IMG/VR virus record: IMGVR_UViG_2648501186_000005
Source of the DNA: a virus
Taxonomy: Duplodnaviria > Heunggongvirae > Uroviricota > Caudoviricetes
Strand: one strand, 5' to 3'
DNA: 5,671 nucleotides
Below, one piece after another: positions 1 to 5,171 of this stretch. The position numbers and the translations under genes were made by a program. Positions within the stretch are counted from its first letter, which is position 1, and every line of letters starts with the position of its first letter. Under the pieces are notes generated by a model. The model made no database searches, was not told the DNA's origin, and was given only the letters and a program-made list of their open reading frames with translations.

Positions 1-927
1 GATGATTACCTGAAATGGCTGGATCAGTGTCTGGCTCAGTTCTGGCGGGTACTGAAACCTGCCGGAAGTCTCTACCTGTTCTGTGGTCATCGCCTGGCAT
101 CTGACACCGAAATCATGATGCGTGAGCGCTTTAATGTGCTGAACCACATTATCTGGGCGAAGCCATCCGGACGCTGGAACGGGTGCAACAAAGAAAGCCT
201 GCGGGCGTATTTCCCGGCAACAGAGCGCATTCTGTTTGCCGAACATTATCAGGGGCCATACCAGCCAAAAAATGATGGCTATGCGGCAAAGGAGCGCGAG
301 CTTAAACAACACGTCATGGCCCCGCTGATTTCTTACTTCCGTGATGCGCGTGAATCACTGGGGATAACGTCCAAACAGATAGCGGAAGCCACCGGAAAGA
401 AAAACATGGTGTCGCACTGGTTTGGTACCTGTCAGTGGCAGTTACCGAACGAAGCTGATTACAGAAAACTGCAGGCGCTGTTCGCGTGTGTTGCAGAAGA
501 AAAGCACCAGCGTGGGGAGCTGGCAACGCCACACCAGCAACTGGTCAGCACATACAGTGAACTGAACCGGCAATATGCCAGTCTGCTTGAGGAATACAAA
601 TCTCTGCGGCGTTATTTTTCTGTATCGGCCGCCGTTCCTTATACGGACGTCTGGACGCATAAGCCCGTGCAGTATTATCCGGGTAAGCATCCCTGCGAAA
701 AACCGGCGGATATGTTGCGTCAGATAATTTCTGCCAGCAGTCGTCCGGGGGATGTGGTTGCGGATTTTTTTATGGGATCGGGGGCAACAATAAAAGCAGC
801 AATGGGATTGGGGCGTCGCACGATTGGGGTTGAACTTGAGTCCGGGCGTTTTGAACAAACAGTTGGTGAAATATTGGTGCTGAACGATAAATTGCGAAAT
901 GCACAATTAGATAAGAACAGGAGCTAA
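1..927 (+). CDS. DNA methyltransferase, N6-adenine/N4-cytosine (amino-MTase) family; 5'-truncated by the window edge
   Basis: Frame 1 is open from base 1 to TAA at 925-927, so the true start lies upstream; the ATG at 115 is internal. The translation contains LKPAGSLYLF near the N-terminal side, then HPCEKP followed by FFMGSGAT (an FxGxG AdoMet-binding motif I) near the C-terminus. That motif order is the one I recall for beta-class amino-methyltransferases, whose DPPY-type catalytic motif would lie upstream of the window. No adjacent restriction endonuclease gene is visible. Confidence 0.85.
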   Translation, partial: DDYLKWLDQCLAQFWRVLKPAGSLYLFCGHRLASDTEIMMRERFNVLNHIIWAKPSGRWNGCNKESLRAYFPATERILFAEHYQGPYQPKNDGYAAKERELKQHVMAPLISYFRDARESLGITSKQIAEATGKKNMVSHWFGTCQWQLPNEADYRKLQALFACVAEEKHQRGELATPHQQLVSTYSELNRQYASLLEEYKSLRRYFSVSAAVPYTDVWTHKPVQYYPGKHPCEKPADMLRQIISASSRPGDVVADFFMGSGATIKAAMGLGRRTIGVELESGRFEQTVGEILVLNDKLRNAQLDKNRS

Positions 928-1044
928 TCCTCGATTAATATCTAAGCCAAGCAGGATGCTAGGAAGTTCTGATATATTCTGATCGTTTTTCGATGCTTTA
1001 AAATGATTTGTGCTGGTTGCGAAAGCACGTGGTCGGGCACTGCG

Positions 1045-1080
1045 TTCACACATCTGGAGGGTGTGAAGCCAGCTTTTTTG
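1045..1080 (+). terminator. Possible weak intrinsic terminator downstream of the methyltransferase gene
   Basis: Hairpin TTCACAC (1045-1051) / GTGTGAA (1061-1067) with a 9-nt loop, followed after a 6-nt spacer by TTTTTT (1074-1079). The spacer between stem and T-tract makes it non-canonical. Confidence 0.3.
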
Positions 1081-1089
1081 TGTGTATTC

Positions 1090-1156
1090 AGATGGCGTTC
1101 TGATTCTATAACGAGTTACGTGGACATCAGGGATGGAGAGAATAGGAACGCCATCT
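1090..1156. repeat. Perfect 11-bp inverted repeat (AGATGGCGTTC ... GAACGCCATCT) with a 45-bp spacer
   Basis: Arms at 1090-1100 and 1146-1156 are exact reverse complements. They lie in non-coding DNA immediately after the putative terminator. Function unknown. Confidence 0.6.
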
Positions 1157-1306
1157 TAATACATTTTCCCCGTTTATTTGATATATCTTCCGGATAAGGG
1201 ATTAGGTCTGGTTTTTTATGTCATTCAATAACGCTCTTCTATACTGTATACAATACTTTATCCTGGCAGTGTGTTTAAAACCTGAACTTATCCTTTGTTT
1301 CGTTTA

Positions 1307-1336
1307 TAGACAGAAGGGCTAATGTCGACTTATCAT
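1307..1336 (+). promoter_or_regulatory. Candidate sigma70-like promoter for the 1446-1724 gene
   Basis: TAGACA (1307-1312), an 18-nt spacer, then TATCAT (1331-1336); this would give a roughly 100-nt leader. It is a hexamer match only and is speculative. Confidence 0.2.
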
Positions 1337-1445
1337 CAGCAGGATGGCAATAGATGTGTAAGTAGCTGGTCACCAGCTATACTTCAGTGGTACTTCTGAG
1401 TGCTTCTCTCCGTGAAATGATTATCATCCAGATGGCAGGAGTAGA

Positions 1446-1724
1446 GTGAATATTGATGATATTTCCAGGTGCTCCAGCTTGTTGCAGCGTATTGAGGATG
1501 TTAATGCTGAACGAGCCAGGGCCTTTAGTCGTTTGACAGTTATATTTTCTACCCCTGATCGCCTTTCAGGAAAGAACATTGTTTTATTAAACAGTGATGC
1601 CATCCATAAGGTTTTTGAAGAGTTCATGGCTGCTAATTCAGAATTGCTGGCTCTTGTTGAGGAATACAACGAGATAGCCAGCCGTGTCGGTATGGATGAA
1701 TTCAACGTCATACTTCGTGGATAA
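1446..1724 (+). CDS. Hypothetical protein, 92 aa, predicted soluble and mostly helical (moron-like cargo gene)
   Basis: GTG start at 1446 preceded by AGGAG (1436-1440) with 5-nt spacing; followed by a clean intrinsic terminator. Codons are AT-rich at the third position, unlike the flanking phage genes. No TM segment and no motif I recognise. The antisense ORF 1424-1711 has no such signals. Confidence 0.6.
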   Translation: MNIDDISRCSSLLQRIEDVNAERARAFSRLTVIFSTPDRLSGKNIVLLNSDAIHKVFEEFMAANSELLALVEEYNEIASRVGMDEFNVILRG

Positions 1725-1747
1725 AAACATGCTTCATATTTTCTGTT

Positions 1748-1770
1748 AGCTCGCTACTGCGAGCTTTTTT
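1748..1770 (+). terminator. Rho-independent terminator
   Basis: AGCTCGC (1748-1754), loop TACT, GCGAGCT (1759-1765) with the T-tract running to 1770, about 25 nt after the stop of the 92-aa gene. Confidence 0.7.
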
Positions 1771-2013
1771 GTATCTGAGCCACATCAGGCGCACATCAAA
1801 AACACAGAGCCTTTCAGGGCGGGGAGGGGGCTCTTGCCGTTACACCGTAATGCAAAATAACAGCATACAAAAGGTATCGGTGATGGTTGTTATTGGTGTG
1901 GTTTATTAAAAAAGTGTAAGAAAATTATGAGCGTTGTAGTTGAACAAAATGGTGAAATTGTATGAGCTCGGCATAATGAAAGTTCTGAAGGTATTGCCTG
2001 CACACGCTGTGTA

Positions 2014-2049
2014 AAGGACGGCACGCAACTGCGACTCGTTGCCGTCCTT
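2014..2049 (-). terminator. Possible terminator hairpin for the minus-strand gene 2083-2418
   Basis: 10-bp arms AAGGACGGCA (2014-2023) / TGCCGTCCTT (2040-2049) with a 16-nt loop that itself contains a small CGCA/TGCG stem. On the minus strand the stem is followed by only TTT, so it is weak as a terminator and could instead be a structured RNA or binding site. Confidence 0.3.
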
Positions 2050-2082
2050 GAGGACGCATTTACTCAGGCTAAAGGCGAGTTG

Positions 2083-2418
2083 CTATGCTGGGATGACGGA
2101 AATGGAGTGCCGAATAGCTGCACTTCCGCCTCCTAAATCAATTGTAATATTCCAGTAACCTGAATGCGGTACATGAAGGTGGGCCGGTAATCTCTGAAAA
2201 AAACCGCCACCACCGTGATGATGAAAGCTTCTTGCGTTGCGGTAGTTATTAAAGTTTGTATCTGTCATCAGCAAAATATTGCACTGATGAGAGCAGTCAA
2301 CCACTACCGTATCTCCTGCATTTAAATGCATTCTTTTATGTAAAAACTGCATGTGATTTCCCTGATCAGAGGTAATCAGCCATCCCTCTTTCTCTATGAT
2401 GAGCCAGCGTCCCACCAC
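2083..2418 (-). CDS. Hypothetical His/Gly-rich protein, up to 111 aa from GTG at 2418 (or about 90 aa from the internal ATG near 2355); reverse-oriented cargo gene
   Basis: It is the only ORF of 60 aa or more in the roughly 780-bp interval between the 1748-1770 terminator and the holin gene. It runs opposite to every phage gene in the window. The translation contains SFHHHGGGGFFQRLPAHLHVPH and DLGGGS. The GTG start has no obvious Shine-Dalgarno sequence and the internal ATG has a weak GGGA upstream. Rare codons (AGA, GGA, ATA, TTA) are common. Whether it is coding is uncertain. Confidence 0.4.
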   Translation of the reverse strand: MVGRWLIIEKEGWLITSDQGNHMQFLHKRMHLNAGDTVVVDCSHQCNILLMTDTNFNNYRNARSFHHHGGGGFFQRLPAHLHVPHSGYWNITIDLGGGSAAIRHSISVIPA

Positions 2419-2551
2419 TGGCGGGCTGAATGCTTAACATATCCAGGGTTCAGAAAACGGTAAACCCTGATAAATATCCATATCTTCAAACGTTAATAAA
2501 ATGTCAGTTACGGGGCCGCTGATGGTCCTTTTTATTTACAGGAGAATAAAT

Positions 2552-2941
2552 ATGTCTGAACCCTTATCCGGTTCCAGCACTGCTGTGGCGCTCGGCGGGG
2601 CGACGGTATTCGGGCTGTTTACCGGGACGGATTTCGGGATTGTGTTTGGCGCGTTTGCCGGGGCGTTGTTTGTGGCCACGATGCCACAGGTGATTTCTGT
2701 CTGGCGTGTGGCGGCGCATTTTCTGGTGTCGTTCATTGTTGGCGTGCTGGGGGCGGATGTCCTTGCGTCCTGGCTGGTCGAAAAATTGAATCTCCACAGC
2801 ACATCTCTCGACGCGCTTTGTGCGGTACTGGTATCGGTGGTGTCGGTGAAGATTCTCTCATTCATCCACCAGCAGGATATCGCATCGCTGGTATCCGGGC
2901 TGTTCTCCCGTCTGCGGGGTGGAGGCGGTAATGTTAAGTAA
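2552..2941 (+). CDS. Putative holin / lysis membrane protein, 129 aa, 3-4 predicted Gly-rich TM helices
   Basis: ATG at 2552 with AGGAG (2540-2544) at 7-nt spacing; the ORF-track start at 2501 lacks an SD. Hydrophobic segments are AVALGGATVFGLFTG, GIVFGAFAGALFVATM, AAHFLVSFIVGVLGADVLASWLV and LCAVLVSVVSVKILSFI, with a polar, charged C-terminal tail. It sits immediately upstream of the endolysin, and its stop overlaps the next gene's start (ATGTTAAGTAA). Confidence 0.65.
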   Translation: MSEPLSGSSTAVALGGATVFGLFTGTDFGIVFGAFAGALFVATMPQVISVWRVAAHFLVSFIVGVLGADVLASWLVEKLNLHSTSLDALCAVLVSVVSVKILSFIHQQDIASLVSGLFSRLRGGGGNVK

Positions 2942-3209
2942 CCTTCCCGGATTACTGAATGTGGTGTTAAGCACGGTTATCGTGCTGACGCTCTTTTTTT
3001 ATCGTCGTGGTGAGTCGAGACATAAACCGCTGATGTCGTGGCTGGCCTGGCTGCTGATGCTGCTTTATGCCTTTGCGCCGCTTTGTTATCTGTGTGGTCG
3101 CTTTCCACCCGGTAACTGGCTGGTCGTCCTGATTAACCTGGTGTTCTGCGTGCTGGTGATACGAGCACGCGGGAACGTATCAAAAATCCTTGTATTACGA
3201 AGGCGCTGA
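2931..3209 (+). CDS. Second lysis-cassette membrane protein, 92 aa, about 3 TM helices with an Arg/Lys-rich C-terminus (holin- or antiholin-like)
   Basis: ATG at 2931 with GGAGG (2921-2925) at 5-nt spacing, overlapping the stop of the upstream gene. TM segments are LLNVVLSTVIVLTLFF, LMSWLAWLLMLLYAFAPLCYLCG and WLVVLINLVFCVLVI, and the C-terminus is RARGNVSKILVLRRR. The TGA at 3207-3209 lies 1 nt before the endolysin ATG (TGATATG), indicating translational coupling. Confidence 0.6.
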   Translation: MLSNLPGLLNVVLSTVIVLTLFFYRRGESRHKPLMSWLAWLLMLLYAFAPLCYLCGRFPPGNWLVVLINLVFCVLVIRARGNVSKILVLRRR

Positions 3210-3210
3210 T

Positions 3211-3756
3211 ATGAAGTCGAAAGATGAAATTTTTGACGAAATTCTGGGAAAAGAGGGCGGTTACGTCAATCACCCGGATGATAAAGGTGGTCCGACTAAA
3301 TGGGGCATCACTGAAAAAGTTGCCCGTGCACACGGTTATCAGGGCGATATGCGTGACCTGACGCGTGGGCAGGCGCTGGAAATACTCGAGGCGGACTACT
3401 GGTACGGACCACGATTCGACCAGGTTGAGGACCTGTCTCCGGATATTGCCGCAGAGTTGTGCGATACGGGCGTGAACATGGGGCCAACTGTGGCGTCCAG
3501 AATGCTTCAGCGCTGGCTGAACGTTTTCAACCTGCGCGGGAAACTCTATCCGGATATGGATGCTGATGGACGCATCGGGCCGCGTACTCTTAATGCATTA
3601 CGGGCATATCTGAAAAATCGCAGCAGGGATGGTGAACTGGTACTGGTGAAAGCCCTGAACTGTACGCAGGGCGAGCGTTATCTGGAGCTGGCAGAGAAAC
3701 GCGAGGCCAATGAGTCGTTTGTCTATGGCTGGATGAAAGAGCGCGTGGTGGTTTAA
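3211..3756 (+). CDS. Endolysin: glycoside hydrolase family 108-type muramidase with a C-terminal peptidoglycan-binding domain (181 aa)
   Basis: ATG at 3211 with GAAGG at 7-nt spacing; the TTG at 3190 in the ORF track is not the start. The N-terminus has ILGKEGGYVNHPDDKGGPTKWGIT; the EGGY motif with the catalytic Glu is what I recall for GH108 lysozymes. The C-terminal half resembles the PG-binding region that accompanies GH108 domains. There is no signal peptide or SAR segment, so it would depend on a holin. Confidence 0.85.
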   Translation: MKSKDEIFDEILGKEGGYVNHPDDKGGPTKWGITEKVARAHGYQGDMRDLTRGQALEILEADYWYGPRFDQVEDLSPDIAAELCDTGVNMGPTVASRMLQRWLNVFNLRGKLYPDMDADGRIGPRTLNALRAYLKNRSRDGELVLVKALNCTQGERYLELAEKREANESFVYGWMKERVVV

Positions 3757-3850
3757 AAACTGACACTGAAGTGCTGAACACCCTCAACTCATGCAGGCTC
3801 TTTTCTGGGGCTACGATGAGCGAAAGTAAGGGGCATAGCATCAGATAGCA

Positions 3851-3890
3851 AAAACCCCGGCTGCGGTAACAGTCCGGGGTTTTCTGTTTC
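3851..3890 (+). terminator. Rho-independent terminator after the endolysin gene (usable in both directions)
   Basis: AAAACCCCGG (3851-3860) / CCGGGGTTTT (3874-3883) around a 13-nt loop, followed by TTTTCTGTTTC; A-tract upstream and T-tract downstream. Confidence 0.75.
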
Positions 3891-3916
3891 TGGCCTTGGG
3901 TAAGGCAAAGGAGAAC

Positions 3917-4099
3917 ATGAGGAAGTATAAACTAATTCTGTTGAGGTTGACTATGAAAAACGGCCTTGAATTGAAAGCGCCTGTAACTGATGACATCAGC
4001 AGAGCGGTGGCTTTTGCCATTAAGTGGGTGGCGGTCGGTATCGCTGTGTCTCCGATGCTGTATGGGATGGCAAAATTGCTCATTGCTGTGAAATCGTAA
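3917..4099 (+). CDS. Small membrane protein, 60 aa, C-terminal TM anchor
   Basis: ATG at 3917 preceded by AAGGAG (3908-3913); an alternative ATG at 3953 has GAGG upstream. The translation is MRKYKLILLRLTMKNGLELKAPVTDDISRAVAFAIKWVAVGIAVSPMLYGMAKLLIAVKS, with a hydrophobic C-terminal stretch. It is the first of three tightly spaced small genes after the terminator. Confidence 0.5.
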   Translation: MRKYKLILLRLTMKNGLELKAPVTDDISRAVAFAIKWVAVGIAVSPMLYGMAKLLIAVKS

Positions 4100-4116
4100 G
4101 TGGGGCAGGGGTAAAT

Positions 4117-4251
4117 ATGTCAGATAGCATTATAAAACTGGCGCGAATTCTCTGTGTGGTTGTTGGCCTTTCATTTTCAGCAATGTTGGTTGCCATTTTC
4201 ATTTCCACCGCCTGGCGAGTATTGAGCTTATCCGGATTGATTGGTGGATAG
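4117..4251 (+). CDS. Tiny single-pass membrane protein, 44 aa
   Basis: ATG at 4117 with AGGGG at 5-nt spacing, 17 nt after the previous stop. The translation is MSDSIIKLARILCVVVGLSFSAMLVAIFISTAWRVLSLSGLIGG, with one central TM helix. Its stop lies 4 nt before the next start. Confidence 0.45.
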   Translation: MSDSIIKLARILCVVVGLSFSAMLVAIFISTAWRVLSLSGLIGG

Positions 4252-4255
4252 TGAG

Positions 4256-4438
4256 ATGAAGCGAAAACACTGGACACACAGAATGCCGCGAACGGCGGCG
4301 AAATGGGCACTGGTAGCGATACTGGTGCCTTTTTTCCTGGTGGGATGCGTCAGCCTGGATAAGGCGCGCCAGCTTTTCGATACAGCTTCTCAGGTCTGTG
4401 AAATTGTCGACGGTGTTCGGCAGTGTATGCAGAACTGA
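4256..4438 (+). CDS. Small predicted lipoprotein, 60 aa precursor with a lipobox (LVGC) and a mature part of about 29 aa containing two further Cys
   Basis: ATG at 4256; an alternative ATG at 4286 would give a more typical signal peptide, MPRTAAKWALVAILVPFFLVGC. The L-V-G-C lipobox is followed by VSLDKARQLFDTASQVCEIVDGVRQCMQN. It is too short and not proline-rich enough for a typical Rz1-type o-spanin. Confidence 0.5.
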   Translation: MKRKHWTHRMPRTAAKWALVAILVPFFLVGCVSLDKARQLFDTASQVCEIVDGVRQCMQN

Positions 4439-4525
4439 TCGCCTGTAAGAGCAGAATATTGTTGAATCTAAATTTACTTTGAACAGTGGCCCGGATGGAA
4501 AGGGCATCTAAATAGGAGCAGAAAA

Positions 4526-4735
4526 ATGTTAACTGTAAAAGTCATGTCTCAAAATGGTGGGGAAGAGATCCATTGCGGGCGTAGCATTGGCTATCATCCT
4601 GAGCAGCGGAGTATTGCCGTATCGGGAAAGGATGGGAAAGTCATTCTGAAAGATGGAGATATTGCTTATGTAATGAACCAAAACGCTCAAATAATATCTG
4701 TTTATCGGCCCAATAATAGTCAGAAAAACATTTGA
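4526..4735 (+). CDS. Hypothetical small protein, 69 aa, soluble, probably beta-rich
   Basis: ATG at 4526 with AGGAG (4514-4518) at 7-nt spacing. The translation is MLTVKVMSQNGGEEIHCGRSIGYHPEQRSIAVSGKDGKVILKDGDIAYVMNQNAQIISVYRPN.... No TM segment. I cannot assign a family from memory. Confidence 0.55.
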   Translation: MLTVKVMSQNGGEEIHCGRSIGYHPEQRSIAVSGKDGKVILKDGDIAYVMNQNAQIISVYRPNNSQKNI

Positions 4736-4777
4736 ATTTCGCAAGGCCAAAGTTCAGTGGTGATCGTTATCAACTAA

Positions 4778-4806
4778 TTGAAATAACAAGCTTATGTTTG
4801 TGTAAT
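4778..4806 (+). promoter_or_regulatory. Candidate sigma70 promoter upstream of the 4859-5074 gene
   Basis: TTGAAA (4778-4783), a 17-nt spacer, then TGTAAT (4801-4806). Good hexamer spacing and match, but sequence-only. Confidence 0.3.
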
Positions 4807-4858
4807 TGGTGATATAGCATGTTAATGCTGAATATCAGCGTCAACATGGAGTTATACA

Positions 4859-5074
4859 ATGGTTTTTAAACACTATTACGTGAACAAAAATGCTCAGAGC
4901 AATGGCGATCATGAGGTGCATGCTGAGGAATGTTCATATCTTCCTGCTGTAGCTAACCGCGATTACCTTGGTTACTATAGTGATTGTTCTTCGGCGGTAA
5001 CAGAGGCAAAGGCCAAAGGATATTCCCGGGTGAATGGTTGCTATTGGTGTGCCAATAAGTGCCACACGTCTTAA
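4859..5074 (+). CDS. Hypothetical small Cys/His-containing protein, 71 aa, possible metal-binding; last gene before cos
   Basis: ATG at 4859 with GGAG (4848-4851) at 7-nt spacing and a terminator about 20 nt downstream. The translation contains HEVHAEEC ... DCSS ... GCYWCANKCH. Its position matches the small ORFs found at the extreme right end of lambda-like genomes, but homology is unverified. Confidence 0.55.
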   Translation: MVFKHYYVNKNAQSNGDHEVHAEECSYLPAVANRDYLGYYSDCSSAVTEAKAKGYSRVNGCYWCANKCHTS

Positions 5075-5091
5075 TCAATTGTCAATAAACC

Positions 5092-5118
5092 ATAAAGGCC
5101 GCTCTGCGGCCTTTTTCA
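5092..5118 (+). terminator. Rho-independent terminator (usable in both directions)
   Basis: GC-rich stem GGCCGC (5097-5102) / GCGGCC (5106-5111) with a short loop, flanked by ATAAA upstream and TTTTT (5112-5116) downstream. Confidence 0.7.
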
Positions 5119-5140
5119 TGTTAAAAAAGATTGCGGCATT

Positions 5141-5171
5141 ACAGCAGCCCTTCACTCTAAGGGGCTGCTGT
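5141..5171. repeat. Perfect 10-bp palindrome (ACAGCAGCCC ... GGGCTGCTGT) with an 11-nt loop
   Basis: Arms at 5141-5150 and 5162-5171. It is not followed by a T-tract on either strand at terminator distance, so it is more likely a structural or binding element than a terminator. Confidence 0.5.

Follow-up and report, generated by a model that had tools for sequence, protein, structure and literature searches.

A mosaic accessory-gene slot upstream of the lysis genes of a phiP27-like Escherichia coli prophage, with a mobile reverse-strand DUF1883 cassette

We analysed a stretch of 5,671 nucleotides (hereafter the window; IMG/VR record IMGVR_UViG_2648501186_000005), in which an interval at positions 928-2551 separates a DNA methyltransferase gene from a lysis cassette. 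Genome comparison identified the window as part of the late region of a lambdoid, phiP27-like prophage of Escherichia coli. The interval contains two genes with family matches. The first, on the plus strand and co-oriented with the late operon (1446-1724), starts with GTG and encodes a 92-amino-acid (aa) protein of the family phrog_2873; the second, on the minus strand (2083-2352), encodes an 89-aa DUF1883 protein. The interval is an accessory-gene slot downstream of the Q-dependent late promoter, and comparison with related prophages revealed that it is a recombinational mosaic of three pieces rather than a two-gene unit.

Three natural forms of the interval share Q, the methylase and the holins. 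Variant A, exemplified by the window, carries the 92-aa gene and DUF1883; variant B (examples L009 and L010) carries the 92-aa gene with genes for a TerB protein (tciA) and a DUF3927 protein (tciB); and variant C (example L008) carries all four. Window positions 1-1818 are common to the three variants. Variant C corresponds to variant A with 612 bp inserted at 1818, and a GG microhomology is found at the junction. The adjoining plus-strand sequence (1819-1878) was identified by comparison with L008 and L009 as a relic that comprises the tciB 3' end and adjacent downstream sequence. Past 1878, variants A and C have ~634 bp (1879-2512), whereas variant B has ~27 bp with the tciB terminator. The variants and their junctions delimit these ~634 bp as a self-contained minus-strand DUF1883 cassette comprising promoter, leader, gene and 3' stem-loop. 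In the simplest history, variant C arose from B by gain of the DUF1883 cassette, and A arose from C by loss of tciA and most of tciB (612 bp). As variant A would have derived from C in this way, the 92-aa gene and DUF1883 are adjacent by an accident of deletion. Prophages that are otherwise near-identical either have or lack the cassette, and the sequence comparisons show both the mosaic anatomy of the slot and the mobility of the cassette. A preliminary description of this DNA, made from the sequence alone, had raised the possibility that the two genes travel as a pair. They do not: the 92-aa gene occurs without DUF1883 in the variant prophages and in mEp460, and DUF1883 elsewhere always occurs without the 92-aa gene. 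A literature search on tciA and tciB returned unrelated papers only.

The flanks of the interval place it in a known recombination site. Window positions 1-5554 align to strain EC42405 with ~99.9% identity (blastn), and the gene order in that strain is Q, two small genes, the DNA methylase gene, the interval, two holin genes, a GH108 endolysin gene, terminase and structural genes. The left flank (1-927, plus strand) is the 3' part of the methyltransferase gene (PF01555, E = 7e-27; phrog_6952), as delimited also by blastn breakpoints. On the right, a terminator-like hairpin (2512-2529) and a holin ribosome-binding site (together 2512-2551, plus strand) precede the lysis cassette (2552-3756, plus strand), which consists of a PF16931 holin, a PF05449 holin and the GH108 endolysin according to Pfam, PHROG and RefSeq. 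The isolated phages that best match the whole window are SerU-LTIIb and the Shiga toxin (Stx) 2e phage phiP27, which cover the methylase and lysis genes and leave the interval unmatched in both. The flanks are 85-88% identical to phiP27 at the DNA level, and homology to this phage stops at window position 863 and restarts at 2513 (blastn). At the corresponding place phiP27 carries tRNA-Ile, tRNA-Arg, stxA2e, stxB2e and a small reverse-strand open reading frame (ORF). The earlier remark that the slot upstream of the lysis genes is the site of stx is literally true for this lineage, because phiP27 has stx2e between the corresponding breakpoints.

As to what replaces the cargo elsewhere, variant B has the ~27 bp with the tciB terminator in place of the DUF1883 cassette, and phiP27 has tRNAs and stx2e in place of the whole interval. 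The slots of phiP27 (NC_003356) and SerU-LTIIb resemble the one studied here in having the same methylase and holin-holin flanks (84-90% DNA identity) and identical breakpoints, and differ from it in cargo, which here comprises the 92-aa gene and the DUF1883 cassette. The toxin A and B genes and tRNA genes that characterize toxin-converting cargo were not found in this slot, and a tRNA search of the interval revealed neither tRNA genes nor remnants of them. In SerU-LTIIb (L002, 1122-4127), the slot holds two copies of a tRNA pair and a duplicated holin gene (holin1a), and the LT-IIb toxin genes lie downstream of the endolysin, outside the slot. Homology of the methylase gene to phiP27 and SerU-LTIIb stops 64-88 bp before its stop codon (window 864-927); this places the recombination breakpoint of the slot within the methylase gene, and the C-terminus of the enzyme varies among phages. 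At the other end of the window, the last ~117 bases (5555-5671) do not align to EC42405, so that the window must come from a different strain or from a recombinant.

The interval is AT-rich and sparsely coding, much as the preliminary description had it. Its GC content of 42.5% is below the 51.1% of the methylase and the 54.2% of the lysis genes, and the two genes occupy 549 of its 1,624 bases (34%). They are convergent, the reverse-strand ORF that ends at 2083 facing the 92-aa gene. Two marks of morons are found here, namely extra DNA that is missing from close relatives (the cassette at 1879-2512, missing in variant B) and the deviant base composition. Searches of Pfam and PHROG matched only DUF1883 and phrog_2873 among the ORFs of the interval, and a 64-aa ORF at 1003-1197 had no family match in either collection. 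The left third of the interval is a non-coding stretch of 518 bp (928-1445, plus strand; 41% GC) with no tRNA and no Rfam match, and it is specific to this prophage lineage: it was unmatched in 50,697 phage records, and of 5426 E. coli genomes 51 had a full-length copy, always together with the 92-aa gene. An imperfect hairpin followed by a T run (inverted repeat I1, 1040-1079) lies within it, and its fold is not exceptional. Rfam 15 gave no match at E <= 1 anywhere within 928-2551, although whether Rfam holds models for the small RNAs (sRNAs) AsxR and AgvB was not checked.

The 92-aa gene has a strong Shine-Dalgarno sequence, AGGAG four bases upstream of the start (within 1434-1448), and RefSeq annotates the identical coding sequence, in agreement with the ORF and GTG start first proposed. 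The protein matches the phrog_2873 profile over its full length (residues 1-92, E = 9e-47). This family is tiny, with four 90% clusters and, in a separate search, 19 representatives among 1.8 billion (E <= 0.001). Nothing related was found in Pfam or, by sequence, in the PDB; NCBIfam contained no match, and PADLOC-DB v2 no family at E <= 1, for either this protein or the DUF1883 protein. The two genes had been regarded as orphans, which is no longer tenable given the assignment of one to phrog_2873 and of the other to DUF1883 (PF08980). The AlphaFold model of the 92-aa protein, built from 16 sequences with a mean predicted local distance difference test (pLDDT) score of 91.5, is a coiled-coil hairpin of two long antiparallel helices joined at the tip by a beta-hairpin. 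Foldseek detected no significant relative of this model, the best hits being prefoldin beta (E = 0.05, pdb) and a Vibrio phage protein (E = 0.095, viral).

The genomic setting of the 92-aa gene is more informative. In mEp460, which has no DUF1883, a 61%-identical 92-aa homologue is the first ORF after Q, and in another prophage a 38-40%-identical homologue precedes TerB, DUF3927, two holins of the same families and an endolysin. As the synteny of the 92-aa gene, TerB, DUF3927 and the holins is kept even at 40% identity, we conclude from gene order that the 92-aa gene appears to be a late-strand resident of the pre-lysis region and not an independently mobile moron. A promoter search upstream of it found a single site, at chance level (1307-1336), and the gene is probably expressed with the late operon. 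The proposal that both genes are morons is thus supported for DUF1883, given its presence and absence among prophages, its opposite strand and its shared control module, and is not supported for the 92-aa gene, given its conserved late-operon synteny. The terminator behind the 92-aa gene, which had been suggested to be its own, is part of a boundary element. This canonical intrinsic terminator (1748-1771, plus strand) consists of a 7-bp stem, in which 5 of the pairs are G-C, and a TTTTTTG tail (fold z = -2.6), and it begins an ~80-bp boundary element (1749-1827) that is found after tRNA genes in phiP27 and JLK-2012, and ahead of tciA/tciB in JLK-2012 and Evi.

The reverse-strand gene had originally been drawn as an ORF at 2083-2418. 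That ORF exists and would encode 111 aa from a GTG, but the start is almost certainly the ATG at 2352. Four lines of evidence point there: the domain recognized by Pfam starts only at residue 23 of the long ORF; RefSeq annotates 270 bp; homologues have 87-91 aa; and the spacing of this ATG from the conserved leader core described below agrees with the fixed 47-53 nt. The 89-aa protein matches PF08980 (E = 3e-26; 91.6 bits against a cut-off of 26) over profile positions 1-87 of 89, and matches by sequence the structure of Agrobacterium Atu1913 (PDB 2b1y), E = 3e-8 over 82 residues. Atu1913, the structural founder of PF08980, is a stand-alone protein of ~90-100 aa like the prophage protein. The model of the window protein is a confident beta-sandwich (pLDDT 90.8), predicted to be cytoplasmic, with no signal peptide or membrane segment. 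A fold search with the model returned no significant neighbour; the best was the PliG lysozyme inhibitor (E = 0.03, template modelling score 0.52). A PliG-like, cytoplasmic inhibitor of the endolysin was considered and rated very low, given the missing signal peptide and the position of the gene among tail genes in other phages. Alignment of the prophage DUF1883 subfamily revealed conserved CSHQCN and GYWNxTIDLGG motifs. Literature searches found nothing for PF08980, Atu1913 or IPR015073.

DUF1883 is widely distributed as a single gene. A profile search gave ~2000 clusters, the best 120 of which are all stand-alone proteins of 86-102 aa, and hosts include Enterobacterales, Pseudomonas, Burkholderia, rhizobia and others, at 50-84% identity. 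All nine genomic contexts sampled are in or beside a mobile element; seven of the nine are in a prophage, where DUF1883 and the adjacent late genes are usually on opposite strands. The gene lies between tail genes in Klebsiella and Serratia prophages and just upstream of terS in those of Pseudomonas and Burkholderia pseudomallei. It adjoins the terminase in Pseudolabrys, the immunity region in Burkholderia ubonensis and an integrase in Mesorhizobium, and is found once beside an IS1595 transposase. No conserved neighbour of DUF1883 was detected across the contexts sampled. In B. ubonensis (L017-L019, 91-2003), the gene is ~3 kb from an AAA_21 and DUF4276 pair and adjoins HicAB, and the immunity region around it looks like an accessory or defence-like gene cluster.

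By analogy with other morons, the most likely role of DUF1883 would be some advantage to the lysogen, such as the exclusion of other phages. In its specific form, in which DUF1883 is an anti-phage or superinfection-exclusion factor that binds a component of the incoming phage or a host factor needed by it, we consider this proposal possible but tentative. The position and orientation of the gene are typical of morons, it is a single gene without a partner, and it is very widespread in prophages of Proteobacteria; moreover, the characterized morons HK97 gp15 and Cor exclude phages (PMC3594210). Bacterial TIR domains are also reported to have DUF1883 as a frequent partner (PMC9153377), which hints at a role in conflict systems, although this association is taken from a figure legend and not from a functional test. 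The window protein has no TIR fusion, as it consists of DUF1883 only, and its relatives among the matches listed are all stand-alone proteins (53-119 aa). Against exclusion, no PADLOC model matches DUF1883, and the protein differs from most exclusion proteins in having neither a membrane segment nor a signal peptide.

Alternatively, DUF1883 may modulate host physiology. The sole DUF1883 protein studied so far, MrpB of Clostridioides difficile (CDR1690), is required together with MrpA for a cell elongation and division phenotype, and pulls down MinD, MinC, FtsZ and DivIVA (bioRxiv 10.1101/2025.08.20.671228). By its description, MrpB is likewise a small protein consisting mostly of the DUF1883 domain; however, it is chromosomal, co-transcribed with MrpA and regulated by CmrT, whereas the DUF1883 gene in the window is phage-borne and MrpA is absent. 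A second form of this proposal is metal binding through the CSHQC and HHH residues, and Cys and His residues are indeed conserved in the prophage subfamily. The Cys/His motif is missing in more distant DUF1883 proteins, however, including Atu1913, which has neither the CSHQCN nor the His-rich motif. On this evidence, an effect on division, envelope or metals appears unlikely.

The sequence upstream of DUF1883 proved to be shared with other genes. About 110-125 nt upstream of the start align with the upstream regions of other small reverse-strand genes, carried by phage Evi, a Qin-like prophage, HK022 (gp23, 'srb'), mEp043 (gp70), SPN3UB (gp33) and SaltyDalty. HK022 gp23 is annotated as 'moron gene product'. 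The proteins encoded behind the shared sequence in these carriers are mostly mutually unrelated, and none is related to DUF1883. On the minus strand of the window, the module comprises a putative sigma-70 promoter (2436-2464), with a -35 hexamer TTTACC (2459-2464), a 17-nt spacer and a -10 hexamer TATGTT (2436-2441), overlapped by the inverted repeat CAGGGT..ACCCTG (2444-2469). This is followed by a conserved 5' leader (2353-2430) that includes a core (2403-2428), a GGCTGA segment (2368-2389) and a purine-rich Shine-Dalgarno sequence (within 2353-2364). Alignment of 69 leaders revealed position-conserved hexamers that are -35-like (TTRCTN) and -10-like (TAWNGT), an inverted repeat around both, a nearly invariant transcribed segment after them and then the purine-rich Shine-Dalgarno sequence.

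The module is common and is followed by diverse cargo. The 26-nt core pattern occurs in at least 120 IMG/VR contigs and in eight species representatives (from Citrobacter, Pseudocitrobacter, Enterobacter and Kluyvera), and blastn with the SPN3UB module gave matches in 23 records of isolated phages (HK633, mEp213 and ES18 among them), in none of which the module is annotated. In all of the 72 distinct leaders, 47-53 nt separate the core from the start codon. The cargo ORFs behind them encode 42-150 aa and fall into at least 21 BLAST clusters, DUF1883 is the cargo behind five of the leaders, and long ORFs within 3 kb of the leaders are on the opposite strand at a ratio of ~3:1. These alignments support a conserved, portable promoter-leader sequence module, of which DUF1883 appears to be one of many cargoes and for which an RNA structure and a regulatory role may be hypothesized.

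Other features sought around the module were not found. A conserved upstream ORF in the leader was rejected because the reading frame is not conserved, and a conserved 3' end or convergent partner of leader-bearing cassettes was rejected because the downstream neighbours are various tail and other genes. In HK022 (L030, 1666-1986), SPN3UB (L032, 1608-1998) and mEp043 (L031, 1640-1994), the leader-driven reverse gene overlaps a small forward gene tail to tail; of these forward partners (gp22, gp32 and gp69), two begin MTLEQRVEALEK or MTLEERITALEK. The leader-driven gene and its forward neighbour may form a recurrent convergent pair, which is not universal among the 72 loci. The leaders of DUF1883 in Klebsiella and Serratia phages (L005, 4874-5000; L026, 3878-4000) are shorter and different. 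They keep a TATCAGGATG promoter-proximal motif and a GCCAG..CUGGC hairpin, have no GGCTGA segment and may be diverged relatives of the module.

The upstream limit of the module records its passage through another locus. Homology to the region just upstream of rrrQ-type lysozyme genes ends at 2472-2481, and because the window's module ends exactly where the lysozyme start codon would be, we infer that the cassette was once inside a different lysis cassette. Window positions 2403-2481 were rejected as a fragment of the lysozyme gene itself, as the match is intergenic upstream of rrrQ and overlaps the gene by two bases. In many Stx phages, lysozyme R is directly preceded by a truncated remnant of the module. 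About 100 Stx1 and Stx2 records (for example BP-4795, 24263-24329) have only the promoter-proximal half, and in some records the remnant overlaps the 3' end of a YdfR-family gene.

The leader may fold into a defined RNA structure. A two-hairpin structure with pairing between a loop and the 5' end fits the aligned leaders, with 88.9% of cells able to pair compared with 27-47% when partners are slid; the candidate pairings are UCAGCC with GGCUGA and GCCAGUG with CACUGGC. A variable hairpin in the linker was rejected, as no more than 39% of cells pair there. GGA motifs are present at the Shine-Dalgarno sequence and within a hairpin loop, a placement reminiscent of CsrA-type control. Rfam searches of four other leader-bearing loci gave only a sub-threshold match to isrK (22 bits against a threshold of 50) on the other strand, and the leader sequence was not found in the searchable literature. 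We therefore raise, with some reserve, the idea that the module (2353-2470, minus strand) is an undescribed portable expression element of Enterobacteriaceae prophages, in which a promoter and a structured, possibly pseudoknotted leader would gate hypervariable small proteins expressed in lysogens, DUF1883 among them.

Considering the variants, the flanks and the module together, we favour, with a probability of about 0.7, the reading that the slot is a mosaic of a resident 92-aa gene, a scar left by tciAB and an independently mobile, reverse-strand DUF1883 moron that is expressed in the lysogen. Morons are defined as units that have a promoter and a terminator of their own, differ in GC content and are expressed while the prophage is repressed (PMC3594210), and genes antisense to lytic genes are characteristic accessory loci transcribed in lysogens (PMC7067206). 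By analogy, the late operon would be silent in the lysogen, and the terminators at 1748-1771 and 2512-2529 would keep stray rightward transcription from the holin genes. While the prophage is repressed, the DUF1883 cassette would be transcribed leftward, counter to the late operon, from its own, moderate sigma-70 promoter, and the transcript would end at the stem-loop at 2014-2049. After induction, Q-modified polymerase would read through all of these signals, and the 92-aa protein would be made mainly from this Q-antiterminated late transcript. DUF1883 is envisaged as a small, soluble beta-sandwich binding protein that would act alone, since no partner gene is conserved. Both its expression in lysogens and its function are thus predicted from precedent.

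Several results weigh against this reading. The promoter scan did not call the weak TTTACC-17-TATGTT site, and consensus promoter-like sites in the interval, three found against 3.9 expected, are not above chance. At the other end of the cassette, the stem-loop 3' of DUF1883 (2014-2049, minus strand) has a 10-bp perfect inverted repeat and is kept in a Klebsiella phage, where the changes preserve wobble pairing; the hairpins first noted 3' of each of the two genes are thus both present, but this one has no proper U tract, and the terminator scan did not call it. Covariation in the leader did not rise above that of shuffled alignments, 188-386 of 500 of which reach the observed values, although these sequences are too conserved for the test to decide the structure. 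The fold of the single leader sequence is unremarkable (z = -0.4), and the conservation of the leader could reflect recent recombinational spread rather than functional constraint. Finally, a protective role for DUF1883 is argued from other morons only, because neither PADLOC nor NCBIfam nor any informative structure provided a match.

An alternative is that the lysogen expresses nothing from the interval, the ORFs being passengers of the late region and the shared leader a recombination scar without regulatory function. The leader without covariation, the chance-level promoter-like sites and the truncated relics in Stx phages can all be read in this way. However, a late transcript cannot yield a gene on the minus strand, the leader hardly varies ahead of 21 unrelated cargo families and keeps a constant spacing to the start codon, and DUF1883 keeps its level of identity across distant hosts. 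We consider silent passengers the least probable of the alternatives.

Another view is that minus-strand transcription matters more than the protein, either by interfering with leaky rightward transcription toward the holins in the lysogen or through an antisense RNA. The cassette lies immediately upstream of the holin genes and is directed against the late operon, and RNAs have precedents here: convergent sRNA pairs occupy this moron site in prophages of enterohaemorrhagic E. coli (EHEC; PMC4104026), and an antisense RNA to late genes mediates exclusion in prophage BTP1 (PMC7067206). The EHEC units, the AsxR/AgvB anti-sRNA pairs at the moron site 3' of PR', share with the present case the neighbourhood between Q and the lysis genes and the convergent arrangement. 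They are sRNAs, whereas the convergent units here are protein-coding and match no sRNA family in Rfam. The DUF1883 ORF is in addition strongly conserved as a protein across bacterial orders, and the same cassette occurs at quite different positions, such as among tail genes and at terS. A role of transcription as such is therefore improbable, if slightly less so than silence, and expression of the DUF1883 protein as a moron remains the preferred reading.

The closest described counterparts of the cassette are the morons of HK97 and HK022 (Juhala et al. 2000; review, PMC3594210). As here, these are extra DNA relative to close relatives, deviate in GC content and carry a small gene opposite to the late strand, and ~110 nt upstream of HK022 gp23 ('srb') are homologous to the region upstream of DUF1883. 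The cargo is unrelated, being a 73-aa helical protein in HK022 and a beta-sandwich here, and the sites differ, as gp23 lies between tail genes I and J and the DUF1883 cassette before the holin genes. In kind, the locus is already known, as a moron slot in a phage backbone of the Stx type.

Further features lie downstream of the lysis genes. A very stable hairpin just after the endolysin gene (3840-3895; -27.6 kcal/mol, z = -5.9), preceded by A runs and followed by T runs, looks like a bidirectional terminator and accounts for weak, sub-threshold Rfam matches to sar and rimP on the minus strand. Three small ORFs without a Pfam family (60, 44 and 60 aa; 3917-4438) follow the endolysin gene. The third (4256-4438) has a lipobox-like LVGC motif and lies in DNA 96.6% identical to the L32 region of phiP27. 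These ORFs may encode spanin-like proteins or represent additional cargo. A second AT-rich stretch (4600-5120; 34-40% GC), located between the lysis genes and the terminase, contains a 71-aa Cys/His-rich ORF without a Pfam match (4859-5074) and a hairpin followed by a T run (~5088-5116), and is another moron-like unit.

The pre-lysis site described here is recombination-prone. It holds stx2e in phiP27 and other cargo in stx-negative relatives, which are common in E. coli from pigs and cattle, and its occupancy and the exchange of its cargo bear on the evolution of toxin phages. DUF1883, a family with a solved structure, can now be described as widespread single-gene prophage cargo on the strand opposite to late genes, which gives it a testable biological context. 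The most interesting by-product of the analysis is the promoter-leader module. As a near-invariant sequence before at least 21 unrelated small proteins, among them the product of a founding HK022 moron, it provides a sequence handle for accessory genes expressed in lysogens of Enterobacteriaceae prophages, and it may be a regulatory element in its own right. If so, the repertoire of small proteins that it gates could be a reservoir of defence or counter-defence factors.

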